Of a stretch of 64,000 bases of DNA, positions 3,547 through 29,730 are shown piece after piece. The notes beneath the pieces were generated by a model that was not told where the DNA came from, did no database searches, and worked only from the letters and a program-made list of their open reading frames with translations. Where the stretch lies: positions 1,732 to 65,731 of the IMG/VR virus record IMGVR_UViG_3300034520_000068. The stretch is one strand, 5' to 3'. A program made the position numbers and the translations under genes. How positions within the stretch are numbered: position 1 is the stretch's first letter; each line of letters opens with the position of its first letter. Origin of the DNA: a virus. Its lineage: Duplodnaviria; Caudoviricetes.

Positions 3547-4632
3547 TTAGTCAATTTCCAAGATTTTGTTAGCTTGGTTAAACATCTTGGCAAATCCGGC
3601 ATTTTCGGAAATGGTAAGCACCTGGGTTTGATTGGTAATGAATTTATCGGCTTCCTGTATATCGCTGCCGGATTCCATAACCTTCTCGATTGCATACCGC
3701 CTGTCAAGGCCATACAAAGCCACATGGTCATTGATTTTCTCCACATTCGGATTGTAGAGCAAGGTGACGTTTGTCCAGAGCTGCTGCGGCAATTCCACTC
3801 TGGCAGTAATGGCCATGCCTTTGAGCAGGAAGTCCATCATCTGGGTTGCATCGTTCGGATAGAGAATATCCAGCACCTGAAGCAATCCGTCTTCGCTCGC
3901 CACAACGGTGTTGCACTGATAAGGATAGAAGCGGAGCAAGAATCTTATCCATGCTTGTTTGGAAAGCGTTCCGGAAGTAGCTGCCGGGTCAAGGTCAGTC
4001 TTGGCCTTCAGAATAGGAGCGGCAGTATTGTCGTTGCCATCGCCATTTTTAATTACGTAAAGCACATCCTCAACTTCATCCTGTGCCGCTTGTTCACCGA
4101 TTCTCCTGATGTGGACGGAAAGCAGGTCAATCCTCATCCTTCTGATGACTTCGTAGGAAGCCTCGATAGCACGGCCATACTTCCAGATTTTTACCGCATT
4201 TTCTCTGGTTTTCAGTCTTGCCTTCGGCAGGTCGGCGGCTTCAGTTACCCTTACCTTCTTGGCGGCCTTCTTGTTGGCATCGCTGTCATCGCAGTAAACA
4301 GTCCTGTAAGCATTGCCGTCAATGGTGGTGGTGGTGGCCAGCAGGTAGGGGAGTATGCTGGAACCGACAAGGGCCTCCCTTAATTGTGTCGCTATGAATT
4401 CAGGGAAAAGCACCTTACTTTCTTCAGTTCTGTAAAAAGCCTCAACTTTTGAAGCAATTATGCCTTTTTCGGGGATAGACTGGGTGACGATTCCATGTTC
4501 CTTCAACTGATTCTCGAAAGCGGTCAGCTTACTGCCCTCGGGAGCGGGAGCAAGCTGTTCAAGCAACTGAGAAAGTGTCATTTCTTTCTCGCTTGCCTGA
4601 TTGTATAACTCTCTGGTCAATGTAAATTTCAT
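3547..4632 (-). CDS. Major capsid protein (HK97 fold)
   Basis: 361 aa; LFPEFI...V.E...LP...K.K.GRAIEASYE.I...........NGDGN pattern; position. Confidence 0.8.
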   Translation of the reverse strand: MKFTLTRELYNQASEKEMTLSQLLEQLAPAPEGSKLTAFENQLKEHGIVTQSIPEKGIIASKVEAFYRTEESKVLFPEFIATQLREALVGSSILPYLLATTTTIDGNAYRTVYCDDSDANKKAAKKVRVTEAADLPKARLKTRENAVKIWKYGRAIEASYEVIRRMRIDLLSVHIRRIGEQAAQDEVEDVLYVIKNGDGNDNTAAPILKAKTDLDPAATSGTLSKQAWIRFLLRFYPYQCNTVVASEDGLLQVLDILYPNDATQMMDFLLKGMAITARVELPQQLWTNVTLLYNPNVEKINDHVALYGLDRRYAIEKVMESGSDIQEADKFITNQTQVLTISENAGFAKMFNQANKILEID

Positions 4633-4661
4633 TAATGCTCACATCCTTTCGTTAATTTGAA

Positions 4662-5057
4662 TTAGCCTATATACACGACAACGGTATTATCAGTGGAATC
4701 CACAGATACAGCATAAGCCAGTCCTGCATTGCCGGAAGCCACCTTGCTTACGGCACCAGCACCGTTAACACAGAGGAAGTCGTTCGCGGCAGGAAGCGCA
4801 CCGGATATGCCAGGAACACCTTCCTTGAATCCTTTGACCTGAACGGTCATATATCCGTCATCCTCGTATGTCTCGATAATGCCCCTTAATGGGTCGCCAG
4901 CAGTCCCGAACCCCATCTCGCCGTTTCCGGTTACAGTAACCGCCTTGCCTTCAACAGCGGCGGCACCGGAAGCCAGCGCAACCGCACTCACGCTGCCATG
5001 CGCCTTAAATGTAGCTCGCAAAGCGCCAATGCCTTCAAATTCAATACCTCTTGCCAT
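4662..5057 (-). CDS. Putative capsid decoration/cement protein
   Basis: Gly/Ala-rich beta protein between protease and capsid genes. Confidence 0.5.
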   Translation of the reverse strand: MARGIEFEGIGALRATFKAHGSVSAVALASGAAAVEGKAVTVTGNGEMGFGTAGDPLRGIIETYEDDGYMTVQVKGFKEGVPGISGALPAANDFLCVNGAGAVSKVASGNAGLAYAVSVDSTDNTVVVYIG

Positions 5058-5126
5058 TTACACTCAACTCCTTTCAAAAAATGGGCATAAAAATAACCGC
5101 TTTTTTAGCGGTTTACGGTTTGATGT

Positions 5127-6809
5127 TTACTTTTTCACCTTAAAAGCCTCTTCCGGGATATCCTTTACAGTAACACCGGAAGATAGCCCAGCCGCAGGAT
5201 CAGTCTTTCTTCCTGCGGGGATAGCTTCTTTTGCCTGAGCTTCCCAAGTCTTCGCTATATCCTCGATTGCCTTTTTGTCCATAGTCTCGAAAGTCTTCTT
5301 CCATGTTTCGGCAGGGAAGTCATTGCCCATAGCCCTGACGCCCCATGCAATAGCCGAATCAACGGTTTCCTTGCGGTATGCTTCATATTCGGCTTTTTGG
5401 TATTTGGTCATAATGCACTCATTTTCTTTCAATGCAAGCGTTTCAGCAGATGCCTTAATGGTTTCGATGGTTCCATCCCACTTTTCGGCAATCTGGCTTA
5501 AAACATCTTCAAGTTTTGTCTCACCTTCCTTATAAGTTATTCCAAGTTTTTCAAGCATCTTCAAAACCTTTTCATCCATATGCTTTTCACCACCTTTCAT
5601 AAATGTTTGATTGTTATTCGAAAAAGCATAGACCTTTTTATGGTCTGCTTTTTTGATAAACGTCAATATCCCTCCTTTGCTGCTGTATGTGCCGTATATG
5701 CGGACGTCCGGTGGAATCTTTTTGAAATCATCGAACATCGTAAATATGCCGTATTCGTTTTCGAAATCTCCGCCTGAAGCGCTGAGGCTTGCACCGGCAC
5801 CAGGATATGCGCCGTCAAATACAGCCGAATCTTCCATCAAATATCCCGGAGGCTTGGCTATCGCCCAGCAAAGTTTGACTTCGTTAGTGTCTTCGTCAAT
5901 AACGTATTTTTTGCCTGGGATATGCGGACATTTAAACACGTTTCTTATATCCTCACCGCATATAGAACATTCGAATTTATTGGCACCCCAACCGATTGAA
6001 GTATCGAACAATACTCCCGTTTCAATGTCGGATATAATGGAATCAGTACTTATACCGTCCTTTTCAGTTCCACGTACGATATAAGTAGAACCATTAAAGG
6101 ATATCGTTTCACCTTGCATAAGCCCTTCTTTACTCAGCCAGCCTTCAAACACCCTGCCATAAGGCAATGCGGGTTTCGGCCTTCCGAATCCGGCCCATGA
6201 ATGGTCGAGAAGAAATGAAACGCCATCGTTTGCGTTTTTCTCAAAAACCTCAAGGAGTGGCACCGATAATTGTATGAAACGGTCGGGAATAATCATGTCT
6301 CCGGCCATCTTATGGGTATAAATAAAGACCTCATCTTTTGAAAGAGGTCTTTTGGCAATACGATTTATTTTTTCAAGCTGAGCCGGTGTCGGTTCGCCAA
6401 ATGTGCGGGCAAATGTTTCCATGCCGAAAGCATGGCTTTCGCCTTCGGTATTCTGGAATCTATCCATCTGCCTCTGTGCTACCCGTCTCACAGCAGGCTT
6501 GTCATCCGCCGGAATGTTGCTGTTTTCAATTCTTGCAAGCGCATTTTGCACGGCATTTCTCACTACATGAGGGGAACCGTCAATTATATCAGCATATGGG
6601 AATTTGAACTGTCCGAAATCACTTAATTCTCCTGCCTCATGCCAGAAGAACACCTTGCGGTATTTCTGCCAGTCCATTTTGTCTTTGTCGCCGCTGCCGT
6701 CGGATGAAGCCCATTGTCTGCACCGCATAACTGCGGATGTTTTGTCCCATGTCCTATCCCTGGGAGCTAATGGGAAGTCATGATATTGTTCAGCAGGCAT
6801 ATTATTCAC
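5127..6809 (-). CDS. Prohead protease/scaffold fusion
   Basis: LLDH, TSIG...CSICG...C.H.PG..Y, E.SAV..GA.P.A motifs; charged helical C-terminus; extra N-terminal domain. Confidence 0.65.
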   Translation of the reverse strand: MNNMPAEQYHDFPLAPRDRTWDKTSAVMRCRQWASSDGSGDKDKMDWQKYRKVFFWHEAGELSDFGQFKFPYADIIDGSPHVVRNAVQNALARIENSNIPADDKPAVRRVAQRQMDRFQNTEGESHAFGMETFARTFGEPTPAQLEKINRIAKRPLSKDEVFIYTHKMAGDMIIPDRFIQLSVPLLEVFEKNANDGVSFLLDHSWAGFGRPKPALPYGRVFEGWLSKEGLMQGETISFNGSTYIVRGTEKDGISTDSIISDIETGVLFDTSIGWGANKFECSICGEDIRNVFKCPHIPGKKYVIDEDTNEVKLCWAIAKPPGYLMEDSAVFDGAYPGAGASLSASGGDFENEYGIFTMFDDFKKIPPDVRIYGTYSSKGGILTFIKKADHKKVYAFSNNNQTFMKGGEKHMDEKVLKMLEKLGITYKEGETKLEDVLSQIAEKWDGTIETIKASAETLALKENECIMTKYQKAEYEAYRKETVDSAIAWGVRAMGNDFPAETWKKTFETMDKKAIEDIAKTWEAQAKEAIPAGRKTDPAAGLSSGVTVKDIPEEAFKVKK

Positions 6810-6984: not shown

Positions 6985-8414
6985 CTCCCGAATAAGTCTA
7001 TAACTTTCTTATCTATTTCTTTTTGTTTGCCTTCAAGCATCTTGATTTTATTGTTGATAACTTCGCTGGAATCGTTGCTAAAACTTACCCTGACCGTATC
7101 AAGCGGCGGAGTTCCAACTGCGTTTTCAACTCCCATTACTTCCTGTGCTGCCTTATTATTATCAATCCAGTTCATGATTACTGCAATTGCATAGAATTTC
7201 TCTTTAAGCAATGCAACATTAATTTTGTCAAGTTCACTCTGCCAATCAACGACATTATGAGTGAATACAGGAATGGCTTGAATACCCTTCACTCTTAACC
7301 ATAGTCGGGCTATTTCCTCAATCAGTCGCTTACTACCTCTTTGCAGGGAAAGAATACCCTGTACAAAAATTTTCATTTCTACGCTAGACCAGGTCTCTGT
7401 CCGTCCTGAGCTTCTATTTTCAAAAATGCCAAGTTGCTTCAAGCCATTTAATGTCTGTATATCCGTTAACTCATTTATAGCCCTGAAGTCAACACTTCTT
7501 GAAACATTGCTACCCTGTCCTTGATTTCTGTTCACATCATCAAAAGTAACTATATCAGAATCGGGGTGTATGTTTTTTAAGGTATTAACGATATTGTCGT
7601 ATTGTTCTTTAAGCCATGCTTGAAGCTTTGCGGCATCATTTTTTACATGAGCCGGACAGTATTTCATCATTCGTTCAAGGTTGATTTGATAGAAGTCCCT
7701 TACATAGCCCTGATGATGTAGAACGGCATGTACATCATTAAAAACCTGCAACTGGGAGTCAATAGCCTGCAATGCAGGAGCCATAATTAAATTACCACGT
7801 GGGTCATTCCCATCGGGGTCTGTAGGCACTGCAAATATATTACCCTTACTCAAGTCTATTTTGCCAGAATCAAAACCATATTGATACGGTATCCAAACTT
7901 TCTTACCATCTCGTTCTTCAAGTTCCCATGTTACGGTACGTGGGTCAATAGGATGGACTTCAACTATATCTGTCCTATCTGCATTAACTTCAACCTCGCA
8001 CATTTGAAGCCCATACAGGATACCGTTTTTATGGAATATATCAATCAAGCCATCGAGTCCCGAATTGCTGATAGAATTTATCCTTGCCGCAAACTCCCGC
8101 CATTGTTCCTCAACATCAGTCAATACAACGCCTTTGCTTCGTGTATTAATGCCGTAAAATTTCATCTGGTGCCCCTGATTTGCAAGCCTGATGAAATTCC
8201 ATAGCGCCATAGAAGCATCAGGTGTCTTTTTGACTATAAACTCAATAGCATTGGCTTCATCTGAAATTCTGCGCAATTCATCAAGCAATTTTGCGCTTCT
8301 TGAACGATAAGGGGAAAGTATTGTCCTAATATTACCAGCAGCGGAAACTCGCCCGGTCGGTATGTTCCGAGGCTCATCCCTGGACCGTGCAAAAATTCTA
8401 TTCCAAAACGCCAT
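6981..8414 (-). CDS. Portal protein
   Basis: 477 aa upstream of protease; HPIDPRTV and DPRG..I..PAL motifs. Confidence 0.75.
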   Translation of the reverse strand: MAFWNRIFARSRDEPRNIPTGRVSAAGNIRTILSPYRSRSAKLLDELRRISDEANAIEFIVKKTPDASMALWNFIRLANQGHQMKFYGINTRSKGVVLTDVEEQWREFAARINSISNSGLDGLIDIFHKNGILYGLQMCEVEVNADRTDIVEVHPIDPRTVTWELEERDGKKVWIPYQYGFDSGKIDLSKGNIFAVPTDPDGNDPRGNLIMAPALQAIDSQLQVFNDVHAVLHHQGYVRDFYQINLERMMKYCPAHVKNDAAKLQAWLKEQYDNIVNTLKNIHPDSDIVTFDDVNRNQGQGSNVSRSVDFRAINELTDIQTLNGLKQLGIFENRSSGRTETWSSVEMKIFVQGILSLQRGSKRLIEEIARLWLRVKGIQAIPVFTHNVVDWQSELDKINVALLKEKFYAIAVIMNWIDNNKAAQEVMGVENAVGTPPLDTVRVSFSNDSSEVINNKIKMLEGKQKEIDKKVIDLFGR

Positions 8415-11944: not shown

Positions 11945-13552
11945 TTATGCTATCTTGTCAATTCCGCCAATAAGCCCTACCCAGGGCAGCGCCATATCAG
12001 GCAACATAAAATCGGCAAAACAGAAATAGGCCGCACTGATATGGTCATCATGACCATCGTTGCTTCCGTTTTCATATTTTGTAGTTCCTGTGCTTCTTGT
12101 AATGCTGATATAGTCTTTGAATTGATTTTCAACTTCCTGCGACCACGGAATTTCGCAATATCTTTGCTCGATTATAACCGCAAGATTTTCAACAAGCCTT
12201 TCTTTGTTGTTTCCTTGTTCGTTTATCGGATTACATGGCACTCCACGCTTAGTTAATTGAGATTCGATTGTTTCACCAAGACCTGTTTTGCCAAAATTGC
12301 ATGAAGCACCATTGTATTTTCTTGAATAATATGCAATTCTGTCCCATTGGCCGTCCCAGCTCAAGCCGGCCATCGTCTCTATTTTAACAACACGTCCTTT
12401 ACTATTTCTAATCCATATAACAGGGTCGTCAACAGATTTGCCGGGGTCATATCCCATAGTGTATATTTCAAAAGGTTCCGGTTCGCTCCATGCATCTCTT
12501 TGCTCCTTCGGTAAATCCTCAAGTTTGACAAAACATCTGTCGATGTTCGGAAATACGGCATTGACGTTCGATATAAATTCTGCCAGATAATCCTGACGGT
12601 ATCTTTTATCCGACATTCTTCGAATCAAATTCTCTTTATAAGTTCTACCGTTTTTGGTTATCTGTTCACCACGTGCAGCCATAAGCGGATTGTCCCATGT
12701 GGTGAATCGCCAGCTTTCCCAATCGGGGTCCCAATCTGAAGTTCCTTTTTGTCCCCATTTCCACATCTTATAAAAGTAATTCATGCCTAAAGGGGAGGAA
12801 TTGATTAATGCAACACCGCCTTTGCCGTTTAATCCACGCCCCGGAGAATTCAAACGGCCTTCAAGATTCGCCCATACATCTTCGAGGTCGGCTATCCTTG
12901 CGGCTTCAGTAATAGTTACAATATCAAGGCCAACACCGACCAATGCTTCGGGGTCATATGCTGAATGTACTTCTATTATACCGCCGTTTATCGTTTCAAT
13001 CGTTCTTGTGGTCTTTGATACGTCAACAACGATTTCCTTCGGCAAATTGCCAAGTAATTCACGCCAATTCTGGTTTGCGATTCTGTCTGTAGGAGCAATT
13101 ATCCACCATAAGGCATGAGGAATAATGCTTGACGGTCTGTCCTCGTTTAAGCAGGCAATAAAGTACTTTATGCCTTCCATGATGGAGCATCTATCCTTGC
13201 CCCACCTGATTCCCGCCGCAATAACCTTAAATCTTGCATTGCTCTCATGCACCAATTTTTGTCCCCAATGCGGCTCATATTCGACGGCAATGTTCAGACC
13301 GCCTCTGACATTTTGCATACGGCATTGAGGACAAGTGCGAAAGGAAGTATAAGCATCATACTCAGGGCGGTATACCTGCGAGAACGGTTTTCCACATTGT
13401 TGACAAATAGAAACTCTATCGCTCGTTGAATGTTTTATAAGCTTTTCATTTTTTTGAGTGATTATGCTTACAGAACCGCCTTTTCGAGGCATAAGACCAC
13501 CACCAATAAAAACCCCGTCATTCATTCCTCGTAATATAATATTTGTCCGCAT
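11945..13552 (-). CDS. terL: Terminase large subunit (N-terminal CxxC..CxxC)
   Basis: AAGIRWGK Walker A, ITEAA Walker B, SSPLG.N.FY, GYDPG and HDDH nuclease motifs; likely start ATG 13492. Confidence 0.9.
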   Translation of the reverse strand: MRTNIILRGMNDGVFIGGGLMPRKGGSVSIITQKNEKLIKHSTSDRVSICQQCGKPFSQVYRPEYDAYTSFRTCPQCRMQNVRGGLNIAVEYEPHWGQKLVHESNARFKVIAAGIRWGKDRCSIMEGIKYFIACLNEDRPSSIIPHALWWIIAPTDRIANQNWRELLGNLPKEIVVDVSKTTRTIETINGGIIEVHSAYDPEALVGVGLDIVTITEAARIADLEDVWANLEGRLNSPGRGLNGKGGVALINSSPLGMNYFYKMWKWGQKGTSDWDPDWESWRFTTWDNPLMAARGEQITKNGRTYKENLIRRMSDKRYRQDYLAEFISNVNAVFPNIDRCFVKLEDLPKEQRDAWSEPEPFEIYTMGYDPGKSVDDPVIWIRNSKGRVVKIETMAGLSWDGQWDRIAYYSRKYNGASCNFGKTGLGETIESQLTKRGVPCNPINEQGNNKERLVENLAVIIEQRYCEIPWSQEVENQFKDYISITRSTGTTKYENGSNDGHDDHISAAYFCFADFMLPDMALPWVGLIGGIDKIA

Positions 13553-13683
13553 TTAGGGCAAGCTACAACATCATGGTAACTTCCATCATCTTCAACCACA
13601 ATGTCATAATCAAGTTCATCATTAGGACACCTACAATATGGGCAATTATCATGGAAATTCCATAATAAATATTTATCATCCAT
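13522..13683 (-). CDS. Small zinc-ribbon protein (not in ORF track)
   Basis: MDDKYLLW...CPYC...CPKCGQILYYEE, 53 aa. Confidence 0.5.
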   Translation of the reverse strand: MDDKYLLWNFHDNCPYCRCPNDELDYDIVVEDDGSYHDVVACPKCGQILYYEE

Positions 13684-13911
13684 AAACTCACATCCATTTT
13701 TTTATACAAGGCCAGCCCCGCCCTGCTGATAAAATGCCTTGTCATACCCGCCTGTAAACAGGCACGCCAAAAATCTTTATAGCAATTCCAAAAAAATCGC
13801 ACACAACATGCAAAATGATGCTATATCGAATCTATCCCTGATAACGCAAACAATAGATGCAATTAAGCTTAAAAGAATAAGTATATAACGAATAATCATC
13901 TTGACCCTCCC

Positions 13912-14844
13912 TTAATAATCATTCTTCCGGGCAATAAAAAACGGCACGAATTCGGATTTAAACCGTTCAACCGTGCCATCCTTGCCAATATGCACTTCTA
14001 CAATCCAGCCGCCAATCTTCGGCATTATCCCTTTACGTTTCAAAAATGGTGTTTGCCCCTCAAAGCATCCGCATTGCAATATATGTATATTTCGTTCGAA
14101 TAAATATTCTGACTGGTGCCAATGGCCCAATAGCATAATGTTTGGTTTATCGCCGCCGATAAATCCTGCCGCTATTTTCTGTGGCTTGTAACTCACGGCA
14201 TAGGCTTGTCCGGAATCTGGATGAAGTAAATATATCCTTGTATTTTCGCCTATCTTCACCCATGCAGCCCACTTCCCTAGATAATTTAGGTCCGGCCTTT
14301 TGAGTGATATTTTCTCCCCCGGGTCCACGCCACGGCTTTTGTAATAGGATAGGTCGTGATTTCCGGTGATGAAATGTGTTGTTATTCCCGGCCTTGATGG
14401 ATATTTGTCTATGATATAATCTACCTGATTATCAAATCCCACATTGAATATTTCGTATATCTGCCCCGAATACATTCCCTCACCTGCTGTAATGTCGCCA
14501 GCGTGGTAAACATCGCTGACACCCTCCGCCGCAAATATATCATACATTCGGTTCAGGTGAGTGAGTTGTTGCTCTCGTGAGTTCAAGTGAGTATCACTAA
14601 CCACACCGAATTTGTATGTCCGGCTTTGGGTAAAATCGTATTCCTTATCTTCGGGAGGGGGTAATGGCCTTTGTCGCTGGTCGATTTTCTTTTTCTTTTT
14701 ATCTATGTTCCTTACCGCTGTCCGTATTGTTTGGTCGGGCTTGTTTTTAAGGTCCGGAAATTGTGTTCTGATTTCATCGTATAATTCTGTCCAACTCAAG
14801 CCTTCTTCTCGTTTCAGCCTCCAAGCTTCTTCTCTCCAGTTCAT
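13912..14844 (-). CDS. Calcineurin-like metallophosphoesterase with N-terminal HTH-like segment
   Basis: SDTH, HAGD, GNHD, GHWH motifs. Confidence 0.88.
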   Translation of the reverse strand: MNWREEAWRLKREEGLSWTELYDEIRTQFPDLKNKPDQTIRTAVRNIDKKKKKIDQRQRPLPPPEDKEYDFTQSRTYKFGVVSDTHLNSREQQLTHLNRMYDIFAAEGVSDVYHAGDITAGEGMYSGQIYEIFNVGFDNQVDYIIDKYPSRPGITTHFITGNHDLSYYKSRGVDPGEKISLKRPDLNYLGKWAAWVKIGENTRIYLLHPDSGQAYAVSYKPQKIAAGFIGGDKPNIMLLGHWHQSEYLFERNIHILQCGCFEGQTPFLKRKGIMPKIGGWIVEVHIGKDGTVERFKSEFVPFFIARKNDY

Positions 14845-14859
14845 CTACCCACCTCGCTT

Positions 14860-15261
14860 TTAGCAATACATAGCTACAATATAGTCCAATGCATCTTCCA
14901 AAGTTTCAAAATGCTTTGTTACATGCGCCTTTATCCATACACTTTCGTTGTATTCAGCCCTGCCCCACGTTATCACGGGCTTCCCTTTCATGGCGGCATA
15001 TACTATTTCGCCTATGGTGCCGGGAGAAGGCTCCCGGTAATCCATCTCTGCCAGGATTATATCGGATTTATCTATGTAATATTTGTTTCGTATAACGATT
15101 TCCTGTGGCTCGTATTGGCCGTTTATGTCAAATCCTTCTAAGGGATTATGTGCTTTAATTCCCACCCGAAGTAAACTAAAAATGGCTTTCACACGCCATT
15201 TGCTCGCTTCGGCCTGAGTTAAGCCGGATATTTTACCTGCAAGATATATCAGCATCGACAT
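14860..15261 (-). CDS. Nucleoside 2-deoxyribosyltransferase-like protein
   Basis: IYLAG, SDIILA, S.GT..E..YA...GKPV. Confidence 0.8.
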   Translation of the reverse strand: MSMLIYLAGKISGLTQAEASKWRVKAIFSLLRVGIKAHNPLEGFDINGQYEPQEIVIRNKYYIDKSDIILAEMDYREPSPGTIGEIVYAAMKGKPVITWGRAEYNESVWIKAHVTKHFETLEDALDYIVAMYC

Positions 15262-15876: not shown

Positions 15877-16239
15877 TTATGGTTTCACCTCAACATATTT
15901 GTTTTGCTTTGTGTCGTAGTATTCAATCTTAAGATTCTCCGGCCTCATATCTTCTTCGACTTTTTGCTCTATATCTGCATATAAGCCTAATCGCTTTGCG
16001 CACTCTATTTTGTACCACTTCTGAAATTCAGGTGTTTTAATAAGCCGTTCAAAGGCTTTCTTTTTGTTTTGCATTTGGCTTCGTTCTTCTCTGCTTTCTC
16101 CAACTGCTCCGCTGGCTATATGTATCATTCTTACCCCTGTTTCTACTTTGTTTTGGTTTTGGCCGCCTTTGCCACCACTTCGAAAAGTATCTATGCGAAA
16201 ATCTTTTTTGGTTATGGAAAACAATAATTCCCTTGACAC
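15877..16239 (-). CDS. Release-factor-like peptidyl-tRNA hydrolase domain protein (GGQ)
   Basis: FRSGGKGGQNQNKVETGVR..H..SG......ERSQ.QNK..A..RL; no stop-codon recognition domains. Confidence 0.88.
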   Translation of the reverse strand: MSRELLFSITKKDFRIDTFRSGGKGGQNQNKVETGVRMIHIASGAVGESREERSQMQNKKKAFERLIKTPEFQKWYKIECAKRLGLYADIEQKVEEDMRPENLKIEYYDTKQNKYVEVKP

Positions 16240-16674: not shown

Positions 16675-16748
16675 TGGCTTCAGGGGAAGGAATCGAACCT
16701 CCATCGCAAGGTCCAAAGCCTTGTGTCCTACCTTTAGACGACCCTGAA
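16675..16748 (-). tRNA. tRNA-Gln (TTG)
   Basis: Acceptor TTCAGGG/CCCTGAA, anticodon arm CAAGG-CTTTGGA-CCTTG, T arm GGAGG-TTCGATT-CCTTC, encoded CCA. Confidence 0.95.
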
Positions 16749-20579: not shown

Positions 20580-20608
20580 TTGACAAAGTAACGACGCAGT
20601 AGTAATAT
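20580..20608 (+). promoter_or_regulatory. Strong sigma-A promoter of early region
   Basis: TTGACA-17 nt-TAATAT with AT-rich upstream tract. Confidence 0.75.
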
Positions 20609-21030: not shown

Positions 21031-21093
21031 TCTCTAATGCAGCCTGCCGAATTCGGCAGCCGGTCCCAAGCCCGGATAAAGGCAGAGGGGAGA
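21031..21093 (+). ncRNA. Twister ribozyme (type P1)
   Basis: TCTC-TAA-TGC-AGC-[CTGCCG/CGGCAG]-CCGG-TCCCAAGC-CCGG-ATAAAG-GCA-GA-GGG-GAGA; P1-P4 and both pseudoknots can form. Confidence 0.9.
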
Positions 21094-21693: not shown

Positions 21694-21904
21694 AAAGGAT
21701 ACGGAGAGGGGGAATAAAACTTGAGAAAATTTGTCCGCACATCTCGCACGGGGGATAAAGAGGTGATTGAAATTGCATACAACAAAATAATGATGTACCG
21801 AGTTCACTTAGGATACGTAACAGAAAGAACTATCTACCCCATAACAGGGAAAATTGATTTCGAGAGACTTGAAAAAATTGGATACAAAGAAGAATAGAAA
21901 ATCA

Positions 21905-21935
21905 CCGCCGCCCGGGGCGGATACAAATGCCGGGC
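21905..21935 (+). other. H-type RNA pseudoknot upstream of RBS
   Basis: CCGCC/GGCGG and GCCCGG/CCGGGC interlocked stems. Confidence 0.6.
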
Positions 21936-21955
21936 AGGACGGAAAGGAGCAAATA

Positions 21956-22387
21956 ATGAAAATCATGGATGGCATTGAAAAAATCATAGAAGGCTATCAG
22001 CAACTTGGCTTTGACGTGATATCTATAGACGAAGAAAATGCTATTTCGGAATACATACACCAGAATTTGCAGTCTTGCCCCGTAGAACTATACAGAGGCA
22101 TCATGGTGAGTTGTGATTTCACAGTTGAAGTCGGAGACATAATACGCTCCAAGCATCTATTTGAATCATATACTGAAGACATCGAAGTTGCGAAAGAATT
22201 TGCCCTTCGCAGAAATCAGGGCGCAATACTGAAAATTGAAGAACCCATCGGACTGCCCATCTACATGGTCACAGAAAACGAAAATGAGCAAGAGTGGCTG
22301 ATACCCAGCGGCGAGTATATAGTCACTGATATCGAATCCGATGAGGATGACGATATACAGATTATCACTATCAGGGAGGTGAAATAG
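21956..22387 (+). CDS. Putative ADP-ribosyltransferase (R-S-E clade)
   Basis: LYRG, FESYT...VAKEFA, ENEQEWLIP motifs. Confidence 0.65.
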   Translation: MKIMDGIEKIIEGYQQLGFDVISIDEENAISEYIHQNLQSCPVELYRGIMVSCDFTVEVGDIIRSKHLFESYTEDIEVAKEFALRRNQGAILKIEEPIGLPIYMVTENENEQEWLIPSGEYIVTDIESDEDDDIQIITIREVK

Positions 22388-22626: not shown

Positions 22627-23387
22627 AAAAATATACAAAAGATGCGCTAGTCGAGCAAATACGAAAATCTATACAATCTCTGGGCTATGTGCCCTCGTTG
22701 CCAGAATACAACAAACTCCGATTGAAACCCACGGAGCAAACCATCAGAAGACACGGCCTGACTTGGAGCGAAGCTATGAACCTTGCCGGATATACCACTC
22801 GAAAAGTTGATTTTCTATCGAAAGAAGAAATGCTTGAACAGTTGAAAAAGTATATCTCTATACATGGTCCTGTAATATCGTATCAAGACTATTTGCGTGA
22901 CTATCAAAGATATGACCTACCAAGCCCATCTACATTGATTCGTCAATTCGGTTCTTTCAAAAAAGCCATTGAGGAGGCCGGGGGAAGTACTCCCTACCGT
23001 ATGATTGAATACACAAAAGAGGATTTGATATTTTTTCTGCAAGAATACTATCGAAAATACAAGGTTGCACCAACTATGCCCGAATGGGAAGTATATTCGG
23101 AGAAAAACAATCTCCCTGGAAAAAGCGCATTCCAAAACATTTTCAAAAGGTGGAATCTAGCATTGGAAGCCGCCGGATTGGTGCCGAATTTGCGAAGGAC
23201 TCCAAAATGGGATAGAGAGAAAATCCTTTCAGCACTACGTGAAAACTTTTCTACAATGCCAGGAAGGAGGGAGTACGAAAAATTGAGCAAAGGTAATAAA
23301 GATATCCCTTCTTCCACCACAGTTGTCCGGTTTTTTGGCTCCCTTGCAAATGCGTTTATGCAAGCATTTGCAAAAGATAGCCAGTAG
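22623..23387 (+). CDS. Homing-endonuclease-associated repeat protein
   Basis: Four ~60 aa repeats KE.L...L......P...EY.....PS..T..R.FGS...A...AG; no nuclease motif seen. Confidence 0.7.
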   Translation: MKKYTKDALVEQIRKSIQSLGYVPSLPEYNKLRLKPTEQTIRRHGLTWSEAMNLAGYTTRKVDFLSKEEMLEQLKKYISIHGPVISYQDYLRDYQRYDLPSPSTLIRQFGSFKKAIEEAGGSTPYRMIEYTKEDLIFFLQEYYRKYKVAPTMPEWEVYSEKNNLPGKSAFQNIFKRWNLALEAAGLVPNLRRTPKWDREKILSALRENFSTMPGRREYEKLSKGNKDIPSSTTVVRFFGSLANAFMQAFAKDSQ

Positions 23388-23449
23388 GGCAAGGCCAGCA
23401 CGGTGCAAGCCCGTGCCGCAGGGTTTTATCCCTGCGCCGCTCAACCTAC
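23384..23449 (+). ncRNA. Twister-sister ribozyme
   Basis: GTAGG-GCAAGGC...GCACGG-TGCAAGC-CCGTGC-CGCAGGG/CCCTGCG-CC-GCTCAA-CCTAC. Confidence 0.85.
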
Positions 23450-23468
23450 AACATAAGGAGGAATAAAA

Positions 23469-24049: not shown

Positions 24050-24643
24050 ATGTTTTCACGTTTAAACACCGCCGAAAAACGGCAGGAAGCAAGAAAGTTT
24101 TACCTTGAAGGATGCGACGTTAAAGAATATCCCGAATTGGATTGTATTATTGGGATATCCCGAACCGGTAAGCCATGTGCTATGGCATTTGTCGGCACTG
24201 CTGGCAGGCCAGAGTGGCATTATCTCTTCAAAACTACCGCCGACATGAACGCATACATTGAGAAGTATTTACAGAGCCGTAAAAAAATAATCGAGTATAA
24301 ACAACAGCGCAAACAATCCCGCAAAGCTCCTGCTTTATATGCAGTTCCTTTCAAGCCGGGCGATATCCTTTATGATTCTTGGGGATGGGAGCAGACAAAC
24401 GTAGATTTTTACGAGGTTGTGCAGGTCAAGACGGCAAGCACAATCATTATTAGGCAGATTGCAAAAAATACGACTGAAACGGGCTTTATGAGCGGATACA
24501 CTACACCAAGACCGGGCGAATATATTGGCGAACCACAGCAAAAGCGCATTTCATGGCTTAATGGGGAGCCTTATATAAAATCTCAATATGGCAGTATCAG
24601 CAAATGGGATGGTAAGCCTGTTCTTTGCAGTTGGTATGCGTAA
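24050..24643 (+). CDS. Early hypothetical protein
   Basis: 197 aa; GDILYDSWGWEQTNVDFYEVV motif. Confidence 0.7.
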   Translation: MFSRLNTAEKRQEARKFYLEGCDVKEYPELDCIIGISRTGKPCAMAFVGTAGRPEWHYLFKTTADMNAYIEKYLQSRKKIIEYKQQRKQSRKAPALYAVPFKPGDILYDSWGWEQTNVDFYEVVQVKTASTIIIRQIAKNTTETGFMSGYTTPRPGEYIGEPQQKRISWLNGEPYIKSQYGSISKWDGKPVLCSWYA

Positions 24644-24716
24644 AGCCCCGAGGTTGCCCCGCAAGGGGAGCGGTAAAATTCCGCAGGCCCGAAAGGGCCA
24701 ACGCTCACAGGCTTTA
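24641..24716 (+). ncRNA. Twister-sister-like ribozyme (extra arm)
   Basis: TAAAGCC/GGCTTTA, GTTG/CAAC, CCCC-GCAA-GGGG, GCGG-TAAAATT-CCGC, GGCCC-GAAA-GGGCC, GCTCA. Confidence 0.7.
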
Positions 24717-24738
24717 TCCGGGAAAGGAGGGTTTATTG

Positions 24739-24954
24739 ATGAGTATTTTTCATTTTACACGGCAAGAACTCAAGCAAAAGCAAGCACATGACTTTAAGGA
24801 AGGTAATGTGGTTGTGTGTGGCAAATATTTTATTTGGATTAAATACGGACCTTATAAAGAATATCCTTTACGCACAACTGTTAGTACTAAAAATGATTTT
24901 CGGGACCTGCCGTTGCATAAATGGCCTTATTATATCCGAGATTTTGTAAATTAA
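24739..24954 (+). CDS. Early hypothetical protein
   Basis: AAGGAGG RBS, start MSIFHF. Confidence 0.6.
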   Translation: MSIFHFTRQELKQKQAHDFKEGNVVVCGKYFIWIKYGPYKEYPLRTTVSTKNDFRDLPLHKWPYYIRDFVN

Positions 24955-24989
24955 CGAATAAAAAAAGGAGAGGAAGGAGGGGTTTATTG

Positions 24990-25220
24990 ATGCGGTATTA
25001 TGAAGCCAAGCCCAAAAACGGGCGGCTTACCGAACGTCACAAAACCGAATTAAAAAAAGCCGGTTTTAAATGGGCTGGTTTGGGCTGGATTGCTATAGCC
25101 GACCGTCCCCCAAAAGTTTGGGGGTGTACTGTGAAGGCTATTAAGCCACCGTCCCATAAAGTAGTCATTAAAACTGAGCAGGATTGGGATAAATTCTTGG
25201 GGAAGATTTTTGGGTTATAA
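24990..25220 (+). CDS. Early hypothetical protein
   Basis: AAGGAGG RBS; ELKKAGFKW....W motif. Confidence 0.6.
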   Translation: MRYYEAKPKNGRLTERHKTELKKAGFKWAGLGWIAIADRPPKVWGCTVKAIKPPSHKVVIKTEQDWDKFLGKIFGL

Positions 25221-25269
25221 ACGGGGGTTTATCAGTCCCCGCAATAATTCATAGAAAGGAGGGATTCGT

Positions 25270-25455
25270 GTGACCAACGCACAATGTCAGGCTTATGCGG
25301 TTATAGCCGTCCGGAATCTCATCCGTGACGGCATAATAAAATCCAACATAAAGAAGGTTTATCGAGCAATAGACCGGGAACTTTATCAGCTATTCGATGA
25401 AATTGGCGAAGAAGAAGCCGAAGAAAGAGCCGCAAGAATACTCACCGGGGCTTGA
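25270..25455 (+). CDS. Hypothetical protein
   Basis: AAGGAGG RBS, 61 aa. Confidence 0.65.
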   Translation: MTNAQCQAYAVIAVRNLIRDGIIKSNIKKVYRAIDRELYQLFDEIGEEEAEERAARILTGA

Positions 25456-25510
25456 ATAGGGGTTTATTAGGACCTCAAAAATTCATAGGGAGGAAGGGGA
25501 AATACCAAAC

Positions 25511-25711
25511 ATGCATAGGCTTGAAATAAAAGAACCGTATATTGTTAACAATTGCAGGGGTAGCTATGAAAGAAAAGCCGTGCCTGTATTTCATTCATGG
25601 CGGTATAAATGCGTAGCAGTATCCGAAAATAAACAGGCATTAATAGATTATGCAGAACAATTACCTTTAGATATGTTCTATCAGCGAGAAAGGGTATATA
25701 AGATTGAATAA
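25511..25711 (+). CDS. Hypothetical protein
   Basis: RBS, 66 aa. Confidence 0.55.
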   Translation: MHRLEIKEPYIVNNCRGSYERKAVPVFHSWRYKCVAVSENKQALIDYAEQLPLDMFYQRERVYKIE

Positions 25712-25772
25712 CCCCAAAACATATGGGGTTTATCAGGGCGAAGTTTAATTCATGGAAGGAGGTATAACAAAT

Positions 25773-25919
25773 ATGAGGATGGATAACTATGATAGGCGCA
25801 AATGTTCTATCTGTCGGCGTGAATATGAAACAACCGACAGTGAATCAAAAATATGCCCCTTGTGTAGGGCTGACGAATTGAGGTATAAAGCACAGAAATC
25901 GATAAATAAAACATCTTAG
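25773..25919 (+). CDS. Small zinc-finger protein (not in ORF track)
   Basis: AAGGAGG RBS; CSIC...CPLC, 48 aa. Confidence 0.6.
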   Translation: MRMDNYDRRKCSICRREYETTDSESKICPLCRADELRYKAQKSINKTS

Positions 25920-25968
25920 GAGGGTTTATTAGTGTAAAGTTTTATTCATGCGAAGGAGGCGAACACTC

Positions 25969-26541
25969 ATGCTCAAACTCCCGAAAATCGTCAGCAAAGA
26001 CGGGATTCTAGCCATGCTTGACCAAATTAACACAAAATGTTCTACCGGTGCCCGCAACCACGCCATAATCATGATGATGTGGCGGTGTGGTTTGCGGGTG
26101 TCGGAGGTCTGCAATTTGACGCCAGCCGACGTAAACATAGATAGCGGGTCAATTTATGTCCAGCAGGGGAAGGGGAAAAAGGACAGATACACGTACATGG
26201 ATATGATGACACTAGAATCCGTCAATCGTTGGCTCAAAATCCGGCCCGACAGTCCTTACTTTTTCTGCACTCTCGAAGGTGGGCAACTACAGCAAAGATA
26301 CGTCCGGGAGGTATGCTATCGGATATCAAAAAAAGCGGGGGTTTATATTCAAGATGGCACAAAAAAGAAGCCCGTCAGCCCCCACAAGCTCAGGCATACA
26401 TGTCTTACGAGCTTGTTGAAAAGTGGGTTTAATATCAGGGAAGTGCAGGAAATTGCAGGTCATGCCAGCATAAATACAACACAAATCTATCTCCATGTCG
26501 ACAACCAAGAGCTGGCGGCAAAGATGCGGAGCAGGAAATAA
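25969..26541 (+). CDS. Minimal tyrosine recombinase (catalytic domain only)
   Basis: GLRVSE, GKGKKDR, HKLRH, GHASINTTQIY; 190 aa. Confidence 0.9.
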   Translation: MLKLPKIVSKDGILAMLDQINTKCSTGARNHAIIMMMWRCGLRVSEVCNLTPADVNIDSGSIYVQQGKGKKDRYTYMDMMTLESVNRWLKIRPDSPYFFCTLEGGQLQQRYVREVCYRISKKAGVYIQDGTKKKPVSPHKLRHTCLTSLLKSGFNIREVQEIAGHASINTTQIYLHVDNQELAAKMRSRK

Positions 26542-26644
26542 GGCGGGGGTTTATCCGCACACCAAAAGATTCATAGGCCGGGATTTATCAGCAACAAAAA
26601 AGATTCATAGCTTTACAAAAAATAAACAAAGGAGATGATTCGAT

Positions 26645-26854
26645 ATGGCTCATCCATGGCCCACAAAAAAAGACGGCGCAGATGCCGCAATTGCTATAAG
26701 GGATATATATAACACAACCGGCACATTGCCGGAGGAAATGGTGACGGCTTACAAAAAAATGCTCAAGACGGCAAGGCCGGGAGTTATCCAGTCATTTTTC
26801 GAGGCGCTGGCGAAGGAGTGCCCCGAGGCATTGAAGTTTTTTATTAAACAGTAA
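26645..26854 (+). CDS. Hypothetical protein
   Basis: AAGGAG RBS, 69 aa. Confidence 0.6.
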   Translation: MAHPWPTKKDGADAAIAIRDIYNTTGTLPEEMVTAYKKMLKTARPGVIQSFFEALAKECPEALKFFIKQ

Positions 26855-26860
26855 ACCACA

Positions 26861-26889
26861 TTGACATTAATATATTAATATGCTAATAT
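26861..26889 (+). promoter_or_regulatory. Sigma-A promoter
   Basis: TTGACA-17 nt-TAATAT with extended -10 TG. Confidence 0.75.
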
Positions 26890-26895
26890 TAGTTT

Positions 26896-27172
26896 GGATG
26901 GTTTTTCATAGCTATATAGGGGCAAATATAGCTATATAGGAAATCAGCGATACGGTAAGCATAGAGGATGCAAATTTTAGTCTACCTGCGTACGGCCAGC
27001 CGGGGGGAAACTCGGCAGAGGTGCAGGGTAAGTCCGAAGAGTGCCTGTGACACAACGGTCGTACGCGAAGGGATTGCAACAACTTTAATTTTTCTCTAGC
27101 ACTGTTAGTGCTAGAAACTTTTAGCCTACCTAGCTAGGGGAGAAGGGCCCGGAGTAAAATCCGGGCTTTTTC
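26896..27172 (+). ncRNA. Candidate ~275 nt structured small RNA
   Basis: Own promoter and terminator (GCCCGGA/TCCGGGC-TTTTT); stem GCGTACGGCC/GGTCGTACGC; no ORF with RBS. Confidence 0.55.
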
Positions 27173-27249
27173 TCGTTTTTATGCAAGGTTATACAGCCAT
27201 CGTACAGCCAACAAGAAGCCTGAAAAAGCCATAACATAAAGCCGAACCA

Positions 27250-27298
<49 letters not shown>

Positions 27299-27404
27299 GA
27301 AAAAACCGCTTGTCCGTAAGGATAAGCGTTTTTATTACTTTTCTGAAAATTTTTCTGGATGGCGGAAATTTAGGGCGGTAGCCAACACACAGCCAACACG
27401 AAAA

Positions 27405-28448
27405 TTAGATAAGATTGATATTCTTTCTCAATTCTTCAATATCGGTATGAGTATAGATATTGGCTGTTGTAGCATAGTCGCTATGACCAATTAACTTTTG
27501 GATAAATACGGTCTCGGCTCCTGCATTTGAAAGCAAAGTTGCAAAAGTATGGCGGCAACAATGAGGATTTAATTTTCTTATTTCCAATTTTTCCAATGTC
27601 GGATAATAAATATATTTTCTATAGTAATCTGCACTCATTTTTTTGCCATTTTTTTTGCATATAATTGTTTCTCCGTTTTGTTTATATCTTGCCTCAATAT
27701 ATTTAAATATCTTTGGATGTATGGGTATAATCCGATTTTTGCCTGCATCAGTTTTTATCCCGCCAGTAATAAGTTGTTTTTCTAAATCTATATTAAATTT
27801 AGTTAACGTCAACATTTCCGTTATCCGCATGCCAGTATAAATCATTATTAATATTGTATCTACCCATTCTATTTTATCTACATTATCCAGCATTTTTTGT
27901 ATTTCAAGGTCTGTAAAAATATCTTTTTCGTTTTTATCAAAAGAAGGCATTTCTATTAAAGTTGCATAGTTTTTATTTACAATATCATTAGCGATTGCAT
28001 AAGAATATAAACTTGTAGCCAATGCTTTTATTTTAGTTAATGTCGATTGACTTTTTTTGTTTTTATAACATTCTGTAATAATATCTTGTAATTGTGCGGT
28101 CCTAATATCTTTTACCTTTATATTTTCGTATTTAGACAAATATTTCCACGCTGCTTTATAATTATTTATTGTATCTTTTGAAATATATTCATATTTACTG
28201 CTAGACCATTCTTTATACAAATCCCCGAGTGTAATATTTGCCTTTGGCGATATCGGTTCTTTGCGATTCATCGCCAGTGCATCCATAGCCTCCTGCCTGG
28301 TTTCAAAATAACCTATTATTTGACGCTGTTGTTTCCCATCTGGTGTCCATCCTGTCGTTATTCGGGCAACCCACGGCCTTCTCCTTCTGCCATTGAGCCG
28401 ATAAGTAGCACCATATCCATTCGGATTCCGCATCTGCTTTCTTTTCAA
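27405..28448 (-). CDS. int: Phage integrase (tyrosine recombinase)
   Basis: N-terminal RNPNGYG arm-binding segment; TGMRITE, KTDAG, HCCRH, GHSDY.TT.NIY. Confidence 0.95.
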   Translation of the reverse strand: MKRKQMRNPNGYGATYRLNGRRRRPWVARITTGWTPDGKQQRQIIGYFETRQEAMDALAMNRKEPISPKANITLGDLYKEWSSSKYEYISKDTINNYKAAWKYLSKYENIKVKDIRTAQLQDIITECYKNKKSQSTLTKIKALATSLYSYAIANDIVNKNYATLIEMPSFDKNEKDIFTDLEIQKMLDNVDKIEWVDTILIMIYTGMRITEMLTLTKFNIDLEKQLITGGIKTDAGKNRIIPIHPKIFKYIEARYKQNGETIICKKNGKKMSADYYRKYIYYPTLEKLEIRKLNPHCCRHTFATLLSNAGAETVFIQKLIGHSDYATTANIYTHTDIEELRKNINLI

Positions 28449-29565: not shown

Positions 29566-29730
29566 ATGGAACTGGAATGGGTTCTCTGCCCGCTTTGCGG
29601 AACAAAATTATGTCGGAGGGACCCAGCAGTCAATGTAGAATTTACCGGAATTTACATTGACTGTAAAAAATGCAAGCAACGGATTGAAATAAAACCAGTG
29701 CCAGTACCAGTGCCAGTGCCGGTCACTTAG
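29566..29730 (+). CDS. Com-like / Cys-rich zinc-finger protein (not in ORF track)
   Basis: WVLCPLCGTKL...IDCKKCK..IEI, 54 aa, AAGGGGG RBS. Confidence 0.7.
   Translation: MELEWVLCPLCGTKLCRRDPAVNVEFTGIYIDCKKCKQRIEIKPVPVPVPVPVT

Follow-up and report, generated by a model that had tools for sequence, protein, structure and literature searches.

A bipartite intergenic repeat and a catalytic-domain-only tyrosine recombinase recur together in phages and look like a gene-cassette module

The window analysed here, a 64,000-nt stretch of a 65,731-bp temperate phage genome, contains a series of small genes that are separated by a short bipartite repeat and include one for a tyrosine recombinase. The repeats bound four small open reading frames (ORFs) and the recombinase gene, with no site after the last gene, g5. 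The array belongs to an operon that likely starts at a sigma-70-like promoter and, since a tRNA 3'-end fragment is found beside the integrase gene, it lies at the attP-proximal end of the genome. The features of the locus are as follows:

20580..20608 (+): sigma-70-like promoter, TTGACA-17-TAATAT, likely start of the array-carrying operon
24729..24741 (+): left-half-like GGGTTTATTG just 5' of an ATG, as the ribosome-binding site (RBS) plus spacer of the ORF at 24739
25225..25254 (+): bipartite site 1, GGGTTTATCAG-N11-ATTCATAG, between the stop codon of the 24990-25220 ORF and the RBS of g1
25270..25455 (+): g1, a 61-aa helical ORF belonging to no Pfam, PHROG or NCBIfam family
25460..25488 (+): bipartite site 2, with an N10 spacer, from the motif search
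25511..25711 (+): g2, a 66-aa ORF with no family and no close IMG/VR relative
25726..25755 (+): bipartite site 3, from the motif search
25773..25919 (+): g3, a 48-aa Cys-rich (CxxC...CxxC) ORF whose zinc-finger match is sub-threshold only
25922..25951 (+): bipartite site 4, immediately 5' of the recombinase RBS
25969..26541 (+): 190-aa catalytic-domain-only, Xer-like tyrosine recombinase (PF00589)
26547..26576 (+): bipartite site 5, spacer CACACCAAAAG, 6 nt past the recombinase stop codon
26581..26610 (+): bipartite site 6, GGATTTAT variant, in tandem with site 5
26645..26854 (+): g5, a 69-aa ORF and the operon's last gene, 99% identical to the copy in locus L017
27251..27298 (+): tRNA 3'-end fragment, likely the attP core beside the integrase gene

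The repeat unit spans 28–30 bp and follows the consensus GGRTTTATYMG-N10/11-ATTCATRG, with six copies within 25225–26610, all on the plus strand. Searches by regular expression and by DNA comparison both returned exactly six full-motif matches in the window, while 100 dinucleotide-preserving shuffles gave a mean of 0.02 matches and a maximum of 1. The first-pass annotation had reported six copies with RTTYAT half-sites 20 bp apart in five of them and 19 bp apart in one, and both statements are confirmed; the spacer is 11 nt in five of the six copies and 10 nt in the copy at 25460. The full motif has no match on the minus strand, elsewhere in the window or in the remaining 1.7 kb of the genome. 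By itself, the right half (ATTCATR) is frequent across the window, occurring 16 times on the plus strand and 13 times on the minus strand; specificity resides only in the left half and in the bipartite combination. A second copy of the left-half-like GGGTTTATTG is present at 24980–24992. Inspection of the tabulated sites revealed no dyad symmetry or inverted repeat between the two halves. The left arm may resemble the XerD arm of Firmicute dif sites. RNA folds of the six intergenic stretches were not significant (z −0.5 to −1.0), and Rfam yielded no match over the sites and only noise-level matches in 24600–27400.

Every copy in the window begins 3–15 nt after a stop codon. The annotation had placed each copy between a stop codon and the next RBS; the first half of that description stands for all six, and the second for five, each with a Shine-Dalgarno sequence and then a start codon after it, as site 5 instead precedes site 6 by 5 nt. 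The spacer of site 5, CACACCAAAAG, has the same letters as the spacer that follows the recombinase gene in locus L177. The L177 array also continues directly into a homologue of the window's early gene at 29566–29730, which agrees with the earlier assignment of the array to early genes. Homologues of g1 occur in L018–L020, directly 5' of the recombinase in L019 and L020; an IMG/VR search with the cassette proteins g1 and g2 found no relatives. In a collection of phage genomes from GenBank, the segment 21800–27400 has no relative except for one 43-bp tRNA-like match. Two self-cleaving ribozymes, Twister-P1 (21031–21093) and twister-sister (23382–23453), occupy intergenic gaps of the same operon.

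Sequence analysis of the 190-aa protein showed that it aligns to positions 4–171 of the 172-position PF00589 profile (E 4e-40; 137.8 bits against a cut-off of 27.1), beginning at the first helix of the catalytic (CAT) domain, with no N-terminal integrase domain and no SAM-like Pfam match. Residues R43, K68, H139, R142, H165 and Y174 are invariant among 35 homologues, and their motif context (GLRxxE, HxLRH, GH, Y) presumably places them at the canonical R-K-H-R-H/W-Y positions. The integrase is a separate gene on the minus strand (27405–28448; 347 aa) with weak SAM-like N-terminal matches. The earlier description of a minimal recombinase with a complete catalytic hexad, distinct from the prophage integrase, is thus correct. 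An AF2 model of the recombinase (pLDDT 91.3) retrieved XerA 5hxy as the top Foldseek match (TMq 0.81, E 3e-14), followed by XerH, IntI4, Tn1549 Int and Cre, and the protein scores below the equivalog cut-offs for XerA (159 vs 220 bits), XerC (146 vs 335) and XerD (133 vs 330). It belongs to a large, uncharacterised family of about 195 aa, with 1,837 homologues at E <= 1e-10; the best 120 homologues range from 147 to 321 aa, nearly all of them 179–209 aa. A complex prediction of the recombinase with the 61-aa g1 protein, made without control runs, scored 0.00.

By sequence comparison, the recombinase and the bipartite site recur together in at least four further phage lineages, with array-carrying homologues 57–72% identical to the recombinase of the window. 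Among loci found through the protein, the number of sites is nine in L022, seven in L024, four in L177, three in L017 and one in L178, a 1-kb contig, and in the window, L022, L024 and L177 the recombinase gene is co-oriented with the array and internal to it. Searches that started from the motif led to the same protein. A first IMG/VR motif scan returned 16 stretches, only two of which held more than one match (L014 with seven and L015 with three), and the recombinase homologue is present in both; when tandem sites were sought in a second scan, 35 stretches came back, with arrays only in L014, L015 and L271 (the L024 contig), all on recombinase-bearing contigs. In a complete 70,076-bp relative (G001), all seven matches fall within 12514–14890, a 2.4-kb segment around the recombinase, as opposed to none for a reversed-pattern control, and all three matches in G005 lie no more than 3 kb upstream of the recombinase. 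That the pair turns up in distant phages, and that the recombinase lies within the array there, supports the view that repeats and minimal recombinase belong together. The anatomy of the sites, their conservation, their linkage to the recombinase, its intact active site and the differing cargo are established.

Of the 11 loci with at least 57% identity for which sequence downstream is present, 8 have a left arm starting no more than 10 nt after the stop codon of the recombinase gene, as do 0 of 16 less similar loci; the members of the family with 59% identity or less (L023, L025, L026, L097–L099 and L181–L189) have no such sites. Half-sites also occur alone, the left in L179 and L180 and the right upstream of the L024 recombinase. 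In the genome collection, only three of the 80 loci kept are close members of the family, and the motif is missing from all three; nor was it found in 5 genomes examined or in the 401 genomes sampled of the class of G006. Among 33 new loci scanned, 32 have neither three or more sites nor a tblastn match to the recombinase. One candidate, L273, contains repeats with GGGTTTAT, which were set aside as iterons beside DnaA-box-like repeats; its 8.3-kb contig has no recombinase.

Comparison of gene content between the sites of related phages, as the annotation had proposed, showed cargo that is unrelated from lineage to lineage: the only ORF common to all arrays is the recombinase, the genes between sites are non-homologous across lineages, and a comparison of neighbours across arrays revealed no common partner gene, the HNH-repeat protein included. 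Phages with unalignable flanks still have almost invariant site cores. Spacer types recur across lineages, with eight pairs agreeing at 9 or more of 11 positions where 1.3 are expected (0 of 2000 shuffles reach this number). Two sites follow the recombinase in the window and three in the near-identical L017. In L022 and L024, a tandem array at the operon start is kept in the same order and with the same spacer types. Since these tandem arrays are conserved, they cannot be cassette remnants or debris; moreover, site-by-site deletion would leave a single site, so the earlier interpretation of tandem sites 5 and 6 as an empty cassette is not upheld.

These data have led us to a model in which the minimal Xer-like recombinase has as its DNA targets the repeats around its own gene, the whole being a cassette module within an early operon of counter-defence type, a proposal that we consider plausible, if short of probable. 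Recombinase and sites would constitute a conserved module of 65–74 kb temperate phages, adjoining attP in this genome. Each compact unit consists of a site, an RBS, a small ORF, a stop codon and the next site, the recombinase gene itself being one such unit. The enzyme would bind the 11-bp left arm GGGTTTATCAG and a right arm, WWWWR-ATTCAT, around a variable centre of 5–6 bp, and this 11-6-11, 28-bp arrangement has the size of a dif site. Through cutting and rejoining there, single-gene units could be swapped, acquired or shed between co-oriented sites. As most centres of an array are unlike one another, deletion within a molecule would be restrained; exchange would be favoured with a like-spaced site of a related phage that is resident or co-infects the cell. 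We infer binding, the position of cleavage and any recombination from the arrangement of the locus. The more specific proposal, a new phage-borne cassette system in which a catalytic-domain-only recombinase swaps single ORFan genes between related phages in one cell, is put forward only tentatively; it would amount to a natural form of recombinase-mediated cassette exchange at short direct sites of 28 bp that are non-palindromic and have heterospecific centres, and the swapped ORFan genes would probably serve counter-defence or host takeover.

Several observations count against recombination. The arms lack dyad symmetry, and the core sites of tyrosine recombinases are normally inverted repeats. 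The recombinase has no core-binding domain and there is no conserved partner gene near the arrays. The centres differ within each array, which in classical systems blocks recombination between them; for pdif modules, recombination is reported only between sites with identical spacers (PMC13141974). Sites are absent at homologues at or below 59% identity, half-sites occur alone, and the left half doubles as RBS plus spacer just before start codons. The excision junctions that the annotation had suggested looking for did not appear: in contigs from three further runs of the same study the array is colinear with no joint at any site, although contigs cannot show rare circles. The runs listed were five DNA runs from two studies, four of which may be the source of this DNA, and the comparison used contigs of X2–X5. 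Two joints outside the sites derive from diverged relatives, 23836>24641 (X2, depth 12) and 24692>25244 (X5, depth 3.7), and these breaks are not clean site-to-site events.

The repeats could instead act at the RNA level, as intercistronic elements tuning translation or mRNA processing of each small cistron. The left half, a G-rich, Shine-Dalgarno-like run followed by UUUAUCAG, would then be a 3'-end or ribosome-retention signal and the right half an A/U-rich translational enhancer joined to the true Shine-Dalgarno sequence, in parallel with the self-cleaving ribozymes Twister-P1 and twister-sister in other intergenic gaps of the operon. All 30 tabulated sites lie on the coding strand; for 19 of the 30, a Shine-Dalgarno sequence and start codon follow 7–34 nt downstream, often with the terminal RG(G) of the site merging into the Shine-Dalgarno sequence, and the left half falls within 6 nt past the stop codon in 16 of the 18 sites for which an upstream stop was found. 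The two halves are also found separately, the left serving as RBS plus spacer at 24729, at 24980 and in L018, L020 and L021. Two genes of L022 are identical over a stretch of about 31 nt that takes in the right half, the Shine-Dalgarno sequence, the start codon and the first codons, which suggests that translation-initiation regions are copied as units. However, a signal read by host machinery would be expected genome-wide, yet the sites occur only around the recombinase, form tandem runs of up to five without intervening ORFs, stand in two cases directly before terminators, and show neither a significant fold nor an Rfam match. Their 17 near-invariant positions across very distant phages also exceed the usual needs of a spacer or enhancer, and we regard an RNA function as possible and on the doubtful side. 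Slightly less likely, in our estimation, is a set of operators at which a protein controls or obstructs transcription of the array but does not recombine the sites, the binder being either the recombinase acting as a regulator, like MrpR (YopR) at SPBRE, or another repressor, as at stoperators. In their asymmetry, two-part build and common direction with transcription, the sites resemble stoperators, and PMC10516654 describes MrpR as a repressor with a tyrosine recombinase fold acting on a repeated intergenic element. The retention of multi-site tandem arrays at the operon start in L022 and L024 fits this explanation, and variable tandem spacing with non-palindromic halves would suit a monomer with two contact surfaces. 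Conversely, the catalytic hexad is invariant here and mostly lost in MrpR (PMC10516654); SPBRE and stoperators are dispersed genome-wide at promoters whereas the present sites are local, intercistronic and pre-terminator; and no other conserved DNA-binding gene accompanies the arrays.

A passive origin, in which the repeats are conserved boundary sequences spread by duplication and homologous recombination as phage genomes became mosaic, with no protein dedicated to them and the recombinase as a passenger, appears improbable. Gene-content breaks in relatives also fall at ordinary site-less gene boundaries, the L022 translation-initiation regions attest to duplication, and the one-site difference between the window and L017 could come from unequal crossing-over; nevertheless, near-invariance of the sites is unexpected for neutral sequences while the recombinase drops to 57% identity and the flanks are unalignable, and the recombinase is inside every array found, the motif-first ones included. 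Least credible of all is the idea that the sites are promoters read by a sigma factor of the host or the phage, one for each early gene and a tandem group where the operon begins. Other phages are known to have early promoters in tandem. The conserved blocks are about 20–22 bp apart centre to centre, within the −35/−10 range, and L022 has no sigma-70-like promoter between the upstream terminator and its five tandem sites. Against this, reading ATTCAT as a −10 element would put transcript starts in or beyond the Shine-Dalgarno sequence, which comes 0–3 nt after that element; neither of the blocks looks like TTGACA or TATAAT at a spacing that would work; a sigma-70 scan calls none of the six sites; and the L022 site at 5678 is downstream of its own extended −10 element. 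The sites abut Shine-Dalgarno sequences and two lie immediately 5' of terminators, which argues against promoters, as the annotation had judged for most of them from their closeness to the RBS; promoter function is unlikely.

Returning to the recombinase-target model, the pairing of recombinase and repeat looks like a new kind of gene-cassette module, and its likeness to known systems is partial in each case. Integrons, including those reported in phages (PMC9892861), share a tyrosine recombinase beside co-oriented, compact, mostly promoterless ORFs, each ending in a repeated site at or just past its stop codon, with cargo that differs between relatives. Unlike integron integrases, the present recombinase lacks a core-binding domain and scores only 95.4 bits against 265 (TIGR02249) and 67.8 against 435 (NF011946); its sites are 28–30 bp, non-palindromic and devoid of an attC-like single-strand fold; it is internal and co-oriented rather than divergent at attI with Pc; and ORF-less tandem sites occur. 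Thus, of the integron-like capture and excision system first suggested, the recombinase-repeat pairing and the variable cargo hold, while contig joints and an attC-like fold were not found and the enzyme is not an integron integrase.

Xer/dif and the pdif modules of Acinetobacter plasmids (PMC13141974) come close in having an Xer-like catalytic domain (XerA, XerC, XerD and XerH are the best structural and profile matches), a 28-bp unit in tandem runs parsable as 11-6-11, though with arms unrelated to each other in the phage sites, and single-gene modules between sites with differing short centres. There, full-length host XerC and XerD bind pdif sites whose arms are partly symmetric and whose C/D modules alternate; here, a phage-encoded catalytic domain stands alone and all 30 sites are direct, with unrelated arms. 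MrpR (YopR) and SPBRE of Bacillus phage SPbeta likewise combine a phage protein of tyrosine recombinase fold with a short intergenic repeat, but PMC10516654 describes a protein with core-binding (CB) and CAT domains, three of seven catalytic residues and no recombination, acting at 15-bp sites at about ten promoters across the prophage, in contrast to the intact active site and the bipartite, local, intercistronic sites reported here. Mycobacteriophage stoperators and start-associated sequences (PMC9283540 and PMC3203893) are also short, asymmetric, one-orientation motifs in short intergenic gaps near translation starts; they are genome-wide and tied to the immunity repressor or to start codons, unlike a recombinase-centred array. 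FimB/FimE-type invertases match in size (about 190–200 aa without a full N-terminal domain), yet the recombinase scores 60.3 bits vs 222 and 56.4 vs 221 for these, and the phage locus has no inverted repeats and no opposite-strand sites. SGI1 MpsA with its separate CB-like MpsB (PMC6414798) offers a precedent for DNA-binding help from a separate small protein, whereas no conserved small partner was found near the phage arrays. RecV of C. difficile is a further candidate relative.

A literature search, supplementary files aside, returned no description of the module. Should the sites prove to be recombination targets, integrons and dif modules would be joined by a third site-specific architecture for cassette shuffling, the first that phages themselves carry and operate, and its enzyme would be the smallest tyrosine recombinase known to work on its own. 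The architecture would be distinct from integrons in having no attC folding and no IntI, and from Xer/pdif in needing no host Xer and having no core-binding domain. Such a system would provide a concrete mechanism for the fast turnover of small early or anti-defence phage genes, would make site-finding by a catalytic domain without a core-binding domain a directly testable question, and might yield a tool in the form of a compact recombinase with sites of 28 bp. If the repeats are RNA or operator sites instead, they would still be a sharply defined, conserved regulatory element tied to a recombinase family of ~195 aa. Within the recombinase ORF itself, a stretch encoding GVYIQ, GGGGTTTATATTCA, resembles both site cores fused; we rejected it as a coincidence because its synonymous positions vary freely among homologues, whether or not sites are present.

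Six copies of the bipartite repeat GGRTTTATYMG-N10/11-ATTCATRG are present in the window, all on the + strand and exactly where the first-pass annotation had placed them. No further copy occurs in the rest of the window or of the genome, and chance alone would give 0.02 copies in the window. Together with a small tyrosine recombinase and four small ORFs (g1, g2, g3 and g5) they form an array in the order site 1-g1-site 2-g2-site 3-g3-site 4-recombinase-site 5-site 6-g5. The same locality holds in the other records examined: in a complete 70,076-bp relative, G001, all seven matches fall in a 2.4-kb stretch that surrounds the recombinase, and reversing the pattern as a control gave none.

Thirty sites were tabulated, every one on the coding strand. 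Downstream lies a Shine-Dalgarno sequence with a start codon in 19, another site within 19 nt in nine and a terminator hairpin in two. Within GGTTTAT and ATTCAT there is little or no variation across the 30, while the last four spacer positions are nearly always A or T and the first five or six are variable and C/A-rich. Tandem runs have a period of 28 bp, a unit that can be parsed as 11-6-11, although the arms show no relation in either orientation. The spacers are non-random: eight cross-lineage pairs agree at 9 or more of 11 positions against 1.3 expected, a number of pairs attained in none of 2000 column shuffles. The window and relative L177 share an identical spacer 3' of the recombinase, and L022 and L024 can be aligned over their first tandem sites, spacer included, but not over the flanks. 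The two halves also occur singly: in L179 and L180 a left arm alone is followed by a terminator, and the L024 recombinase has a right arm alone upstream. A left arm begins no more than 10 nt from the recombinase stop codon in 8 of the 11 loci at least 57% identical with downstream sequence and in none of 16 less similar loci.

The recombinase (25969-26541, +) has no domain but the catalytic one (PF00589, E 4e-40). Its predicted fold is confident and Xer-like (pLDDT 91.3; XerA TMq 0.81), and the family it represents, of proteins about 195 aa long, is large and tightly conserved, with 1,837 matches at E <= 1e-10. Across 35 aligned homologues the active-site residues are invariant and mean column identity is 70%. 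In four relatives (L025, L026, L185 and L186) a short, probably disordered Lys/Arg/Thr-rich extension precedes the conserved LPK start, and one 321-aa family member (P0101) carries a fused XRE-type HTH domain; such extensions and fusions may be alternative suppliers of DNA binding.

A motif-first scan of IMG/VR returned 16 stretches, two with several matches and 14 with one, the latter being about the chance number for 17 specified bases in that amount of DNA. Scanning again for a pair of sites within 30 bp returned 35 stretches, among which only L014, L015 and L271 carry arrays. L271 alone of the 33 new loci has at least three sites, and tblastn of the recombinase against those 33 gave no match; the L271 stretch scanned ends before the recombinase gene, which lies between the L271 sites on the fuller contig, which is also that of L024. 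In L014, five sites stand in tandem runs and two more 5' of a 57%-identical recombinase homologue; one site follows this gene and another lies beyond. L015 carries three sites 3' of a 95% homologue. Relatives found through the protein were counted with one common regex:

L022: 9 sites
L024: 7 sites
L177: 4 sites; recombinase 72% identical
L017: 3 sites
L178: 1 site on a 1,035-bp contig; recombinase 72% identical

L018-L020 (recombinase 62-66% identical) carry a variant site, GGTTTATC-N12-AATTC, followed by CCGG or GGGG replacing ATRG. The less similar members L023, L025, L026, L097-L099 and L181-L189 (42-59% identity) have no sites. The evidence is comparative throughout, and the independent lineages with sites are few, about five and one variant clade, mostly represented by metagenomic fragments. 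In L020 a gene for a large serine recombinase (Resolvase and Recombinase domains, 3687-4511) precedes that of the small one by about 500 bp; this provirus therefore uses another integrase type but has kept the small recombinase and variant sites. The bacterial MAG contig L099 encodes a homologue with 49% identity, flanked by CRISPR-like arrays at 4230-5340 and 7487-7880 (repeats of ~37 nt, period 71-80 nt, 15 and 5-6 copies). A candidate on an unrelated viral contig (L273, 60-260, -) was rejected: its two 55-bp iterons with GGGTTTATAAGGGTTTATAATGATTCATAAG resemble the motif only superficially, adjoin three DnaA-box-like TTTTCCACA repeats and are probably a replication origin.

The source record is a single virus genome of 65,731 bp (window = bases 1732-65731), laid out in the window as follows:

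1-14 kb, leftward: head and packaging genes
27251-27298: 48-nt tRNA 3' fragment adjoining the integrase
on the - strand: lysogeny module (integrase, 27405-28448; ImmA-like protease; XRE repressor)
~29.5 to 53 kb, rightward: early and replication genes
53-64 kb, leftward: tail genes

The tRNA fragment is the likely attP core, since it recurs in numerous unrelated contigs, where the sequence upstream is that of a tRNA 5' half. The array forms the distal end of a rightward operon that begins at a sigma-70-like promoter (20580-20608), and a scan from there found no strong + strand terminator before 26854. Because the L177 array runs directly into a homologue of the window early gene 29566-29730, the array is, by sequence context, part of the same transcription unit as the early genes, from which an apparent insertion, the lysogeny module, separates it. 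The operon also encodes an ART-like ORF, an HNH-repeat protein and a PHROG_37844 protein; at other loci this last protein has longer homologues with DUF3560 or LPD29 "polyvalent protein" domains. An ORF at the operon head (21854-22387, +) gives a weak, above-cut-off match to NAD:arginine ADP-ribosyltransferase (24.2 bits vs 22.3). Two self-cleaving ribozymes above gathering occupy intergenic gaps, a type-P1 twister (21031-21093, +; 70.5 bits) and a twister-sister (23382-23453, +; 39.2 bits), so the operon mixes ribozymes with bipartite repeats as intercistronic elements.

We would class the module as a site-specific recombinase with repeat-bounded cassettes, and the literature searched holds no description of this pairing of recombinase and repeat. 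The integron-like system first proposed fits in part: in its likely mode of working the module comes closest to an integron or a dif-module array, yet by the tests applied it belongs to neither, and the only membership they establish is among the tyrosine recombinases, through the catalytic domain. Co-localisation in every lineage, confinement of sites to its neighbourhood, an intact active site and cargo turnover point to the recombinase as reader of the sites, and suggest that DNA breakage and rejoining are part of the function. That the sites are recombinase targets with cassette exchange is a serious but still tentative reading. Cargo does differ across arrays, the recombinase being the only common ORF apart from g1: L019 and L020 have homologues of it that directly abut the recombinase start. 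The capture and excision envisaged earlier finds no counterpart in a rearranged contig among those examined, which counts against a classical recombination site, as do arms without symmetry, the missing core-binding domain, differing centres, separable halves and a left half that also serves as a ribosome-binding-site spacer.

An RNA element, which would account for how tightly the sites fit stop codons and Shine-Dalgarno sequences, and would suit a ribozyme-rich operon, is possible but rather doubtful, as neither the locality nor the ORF-less tandem runs nor the sites ahead of terminators follow from it. Operators have a good precedent in MrpR/SPBRE; however, MrpR has lost catalysis and SPBRE sites are dispersed, and we consider this reading unlikely. 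Passive linkers seem improbable, and promoters highly improbable on geometry, in agreement with the earlier view that most of the sites are poorly placed for them. Cassette exchange at recombinase targets is the reading we prefer.

Several further features lie nearby. A 95-nt GC-rich intergenic stretch (24644-24738, +) with a multi-stem fold (-39.6 kcal/mol, z -1.6) matches Rfam RAGATH-36 at noise level only (E 0.87) and is possibly a further structured RNA of the operon. At 26861-27180 (+) a strong promoter (TTGACA-17-TAATAT with TG) precedes ~250 nt of non-coding sequence that terminates at 27142-27171, just 5' of the tRNA fragment, and may be an unclassified phage ncRNA; over 27004-27298 the Rfam tmRNA match is sub-threshold (20.8 bits vs 47) and ARAGORN finds none. 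Finally, a 120-aa protein with an RF-1 domain only (15877-16239, -; ArfB-like, PF00472, E 8.5e-21) is encoded next to a tRNA-Gln(UUG) gene (16675-16748, -), an adjacency that hints at manipulation of translation or ribosome rescue by the phage.
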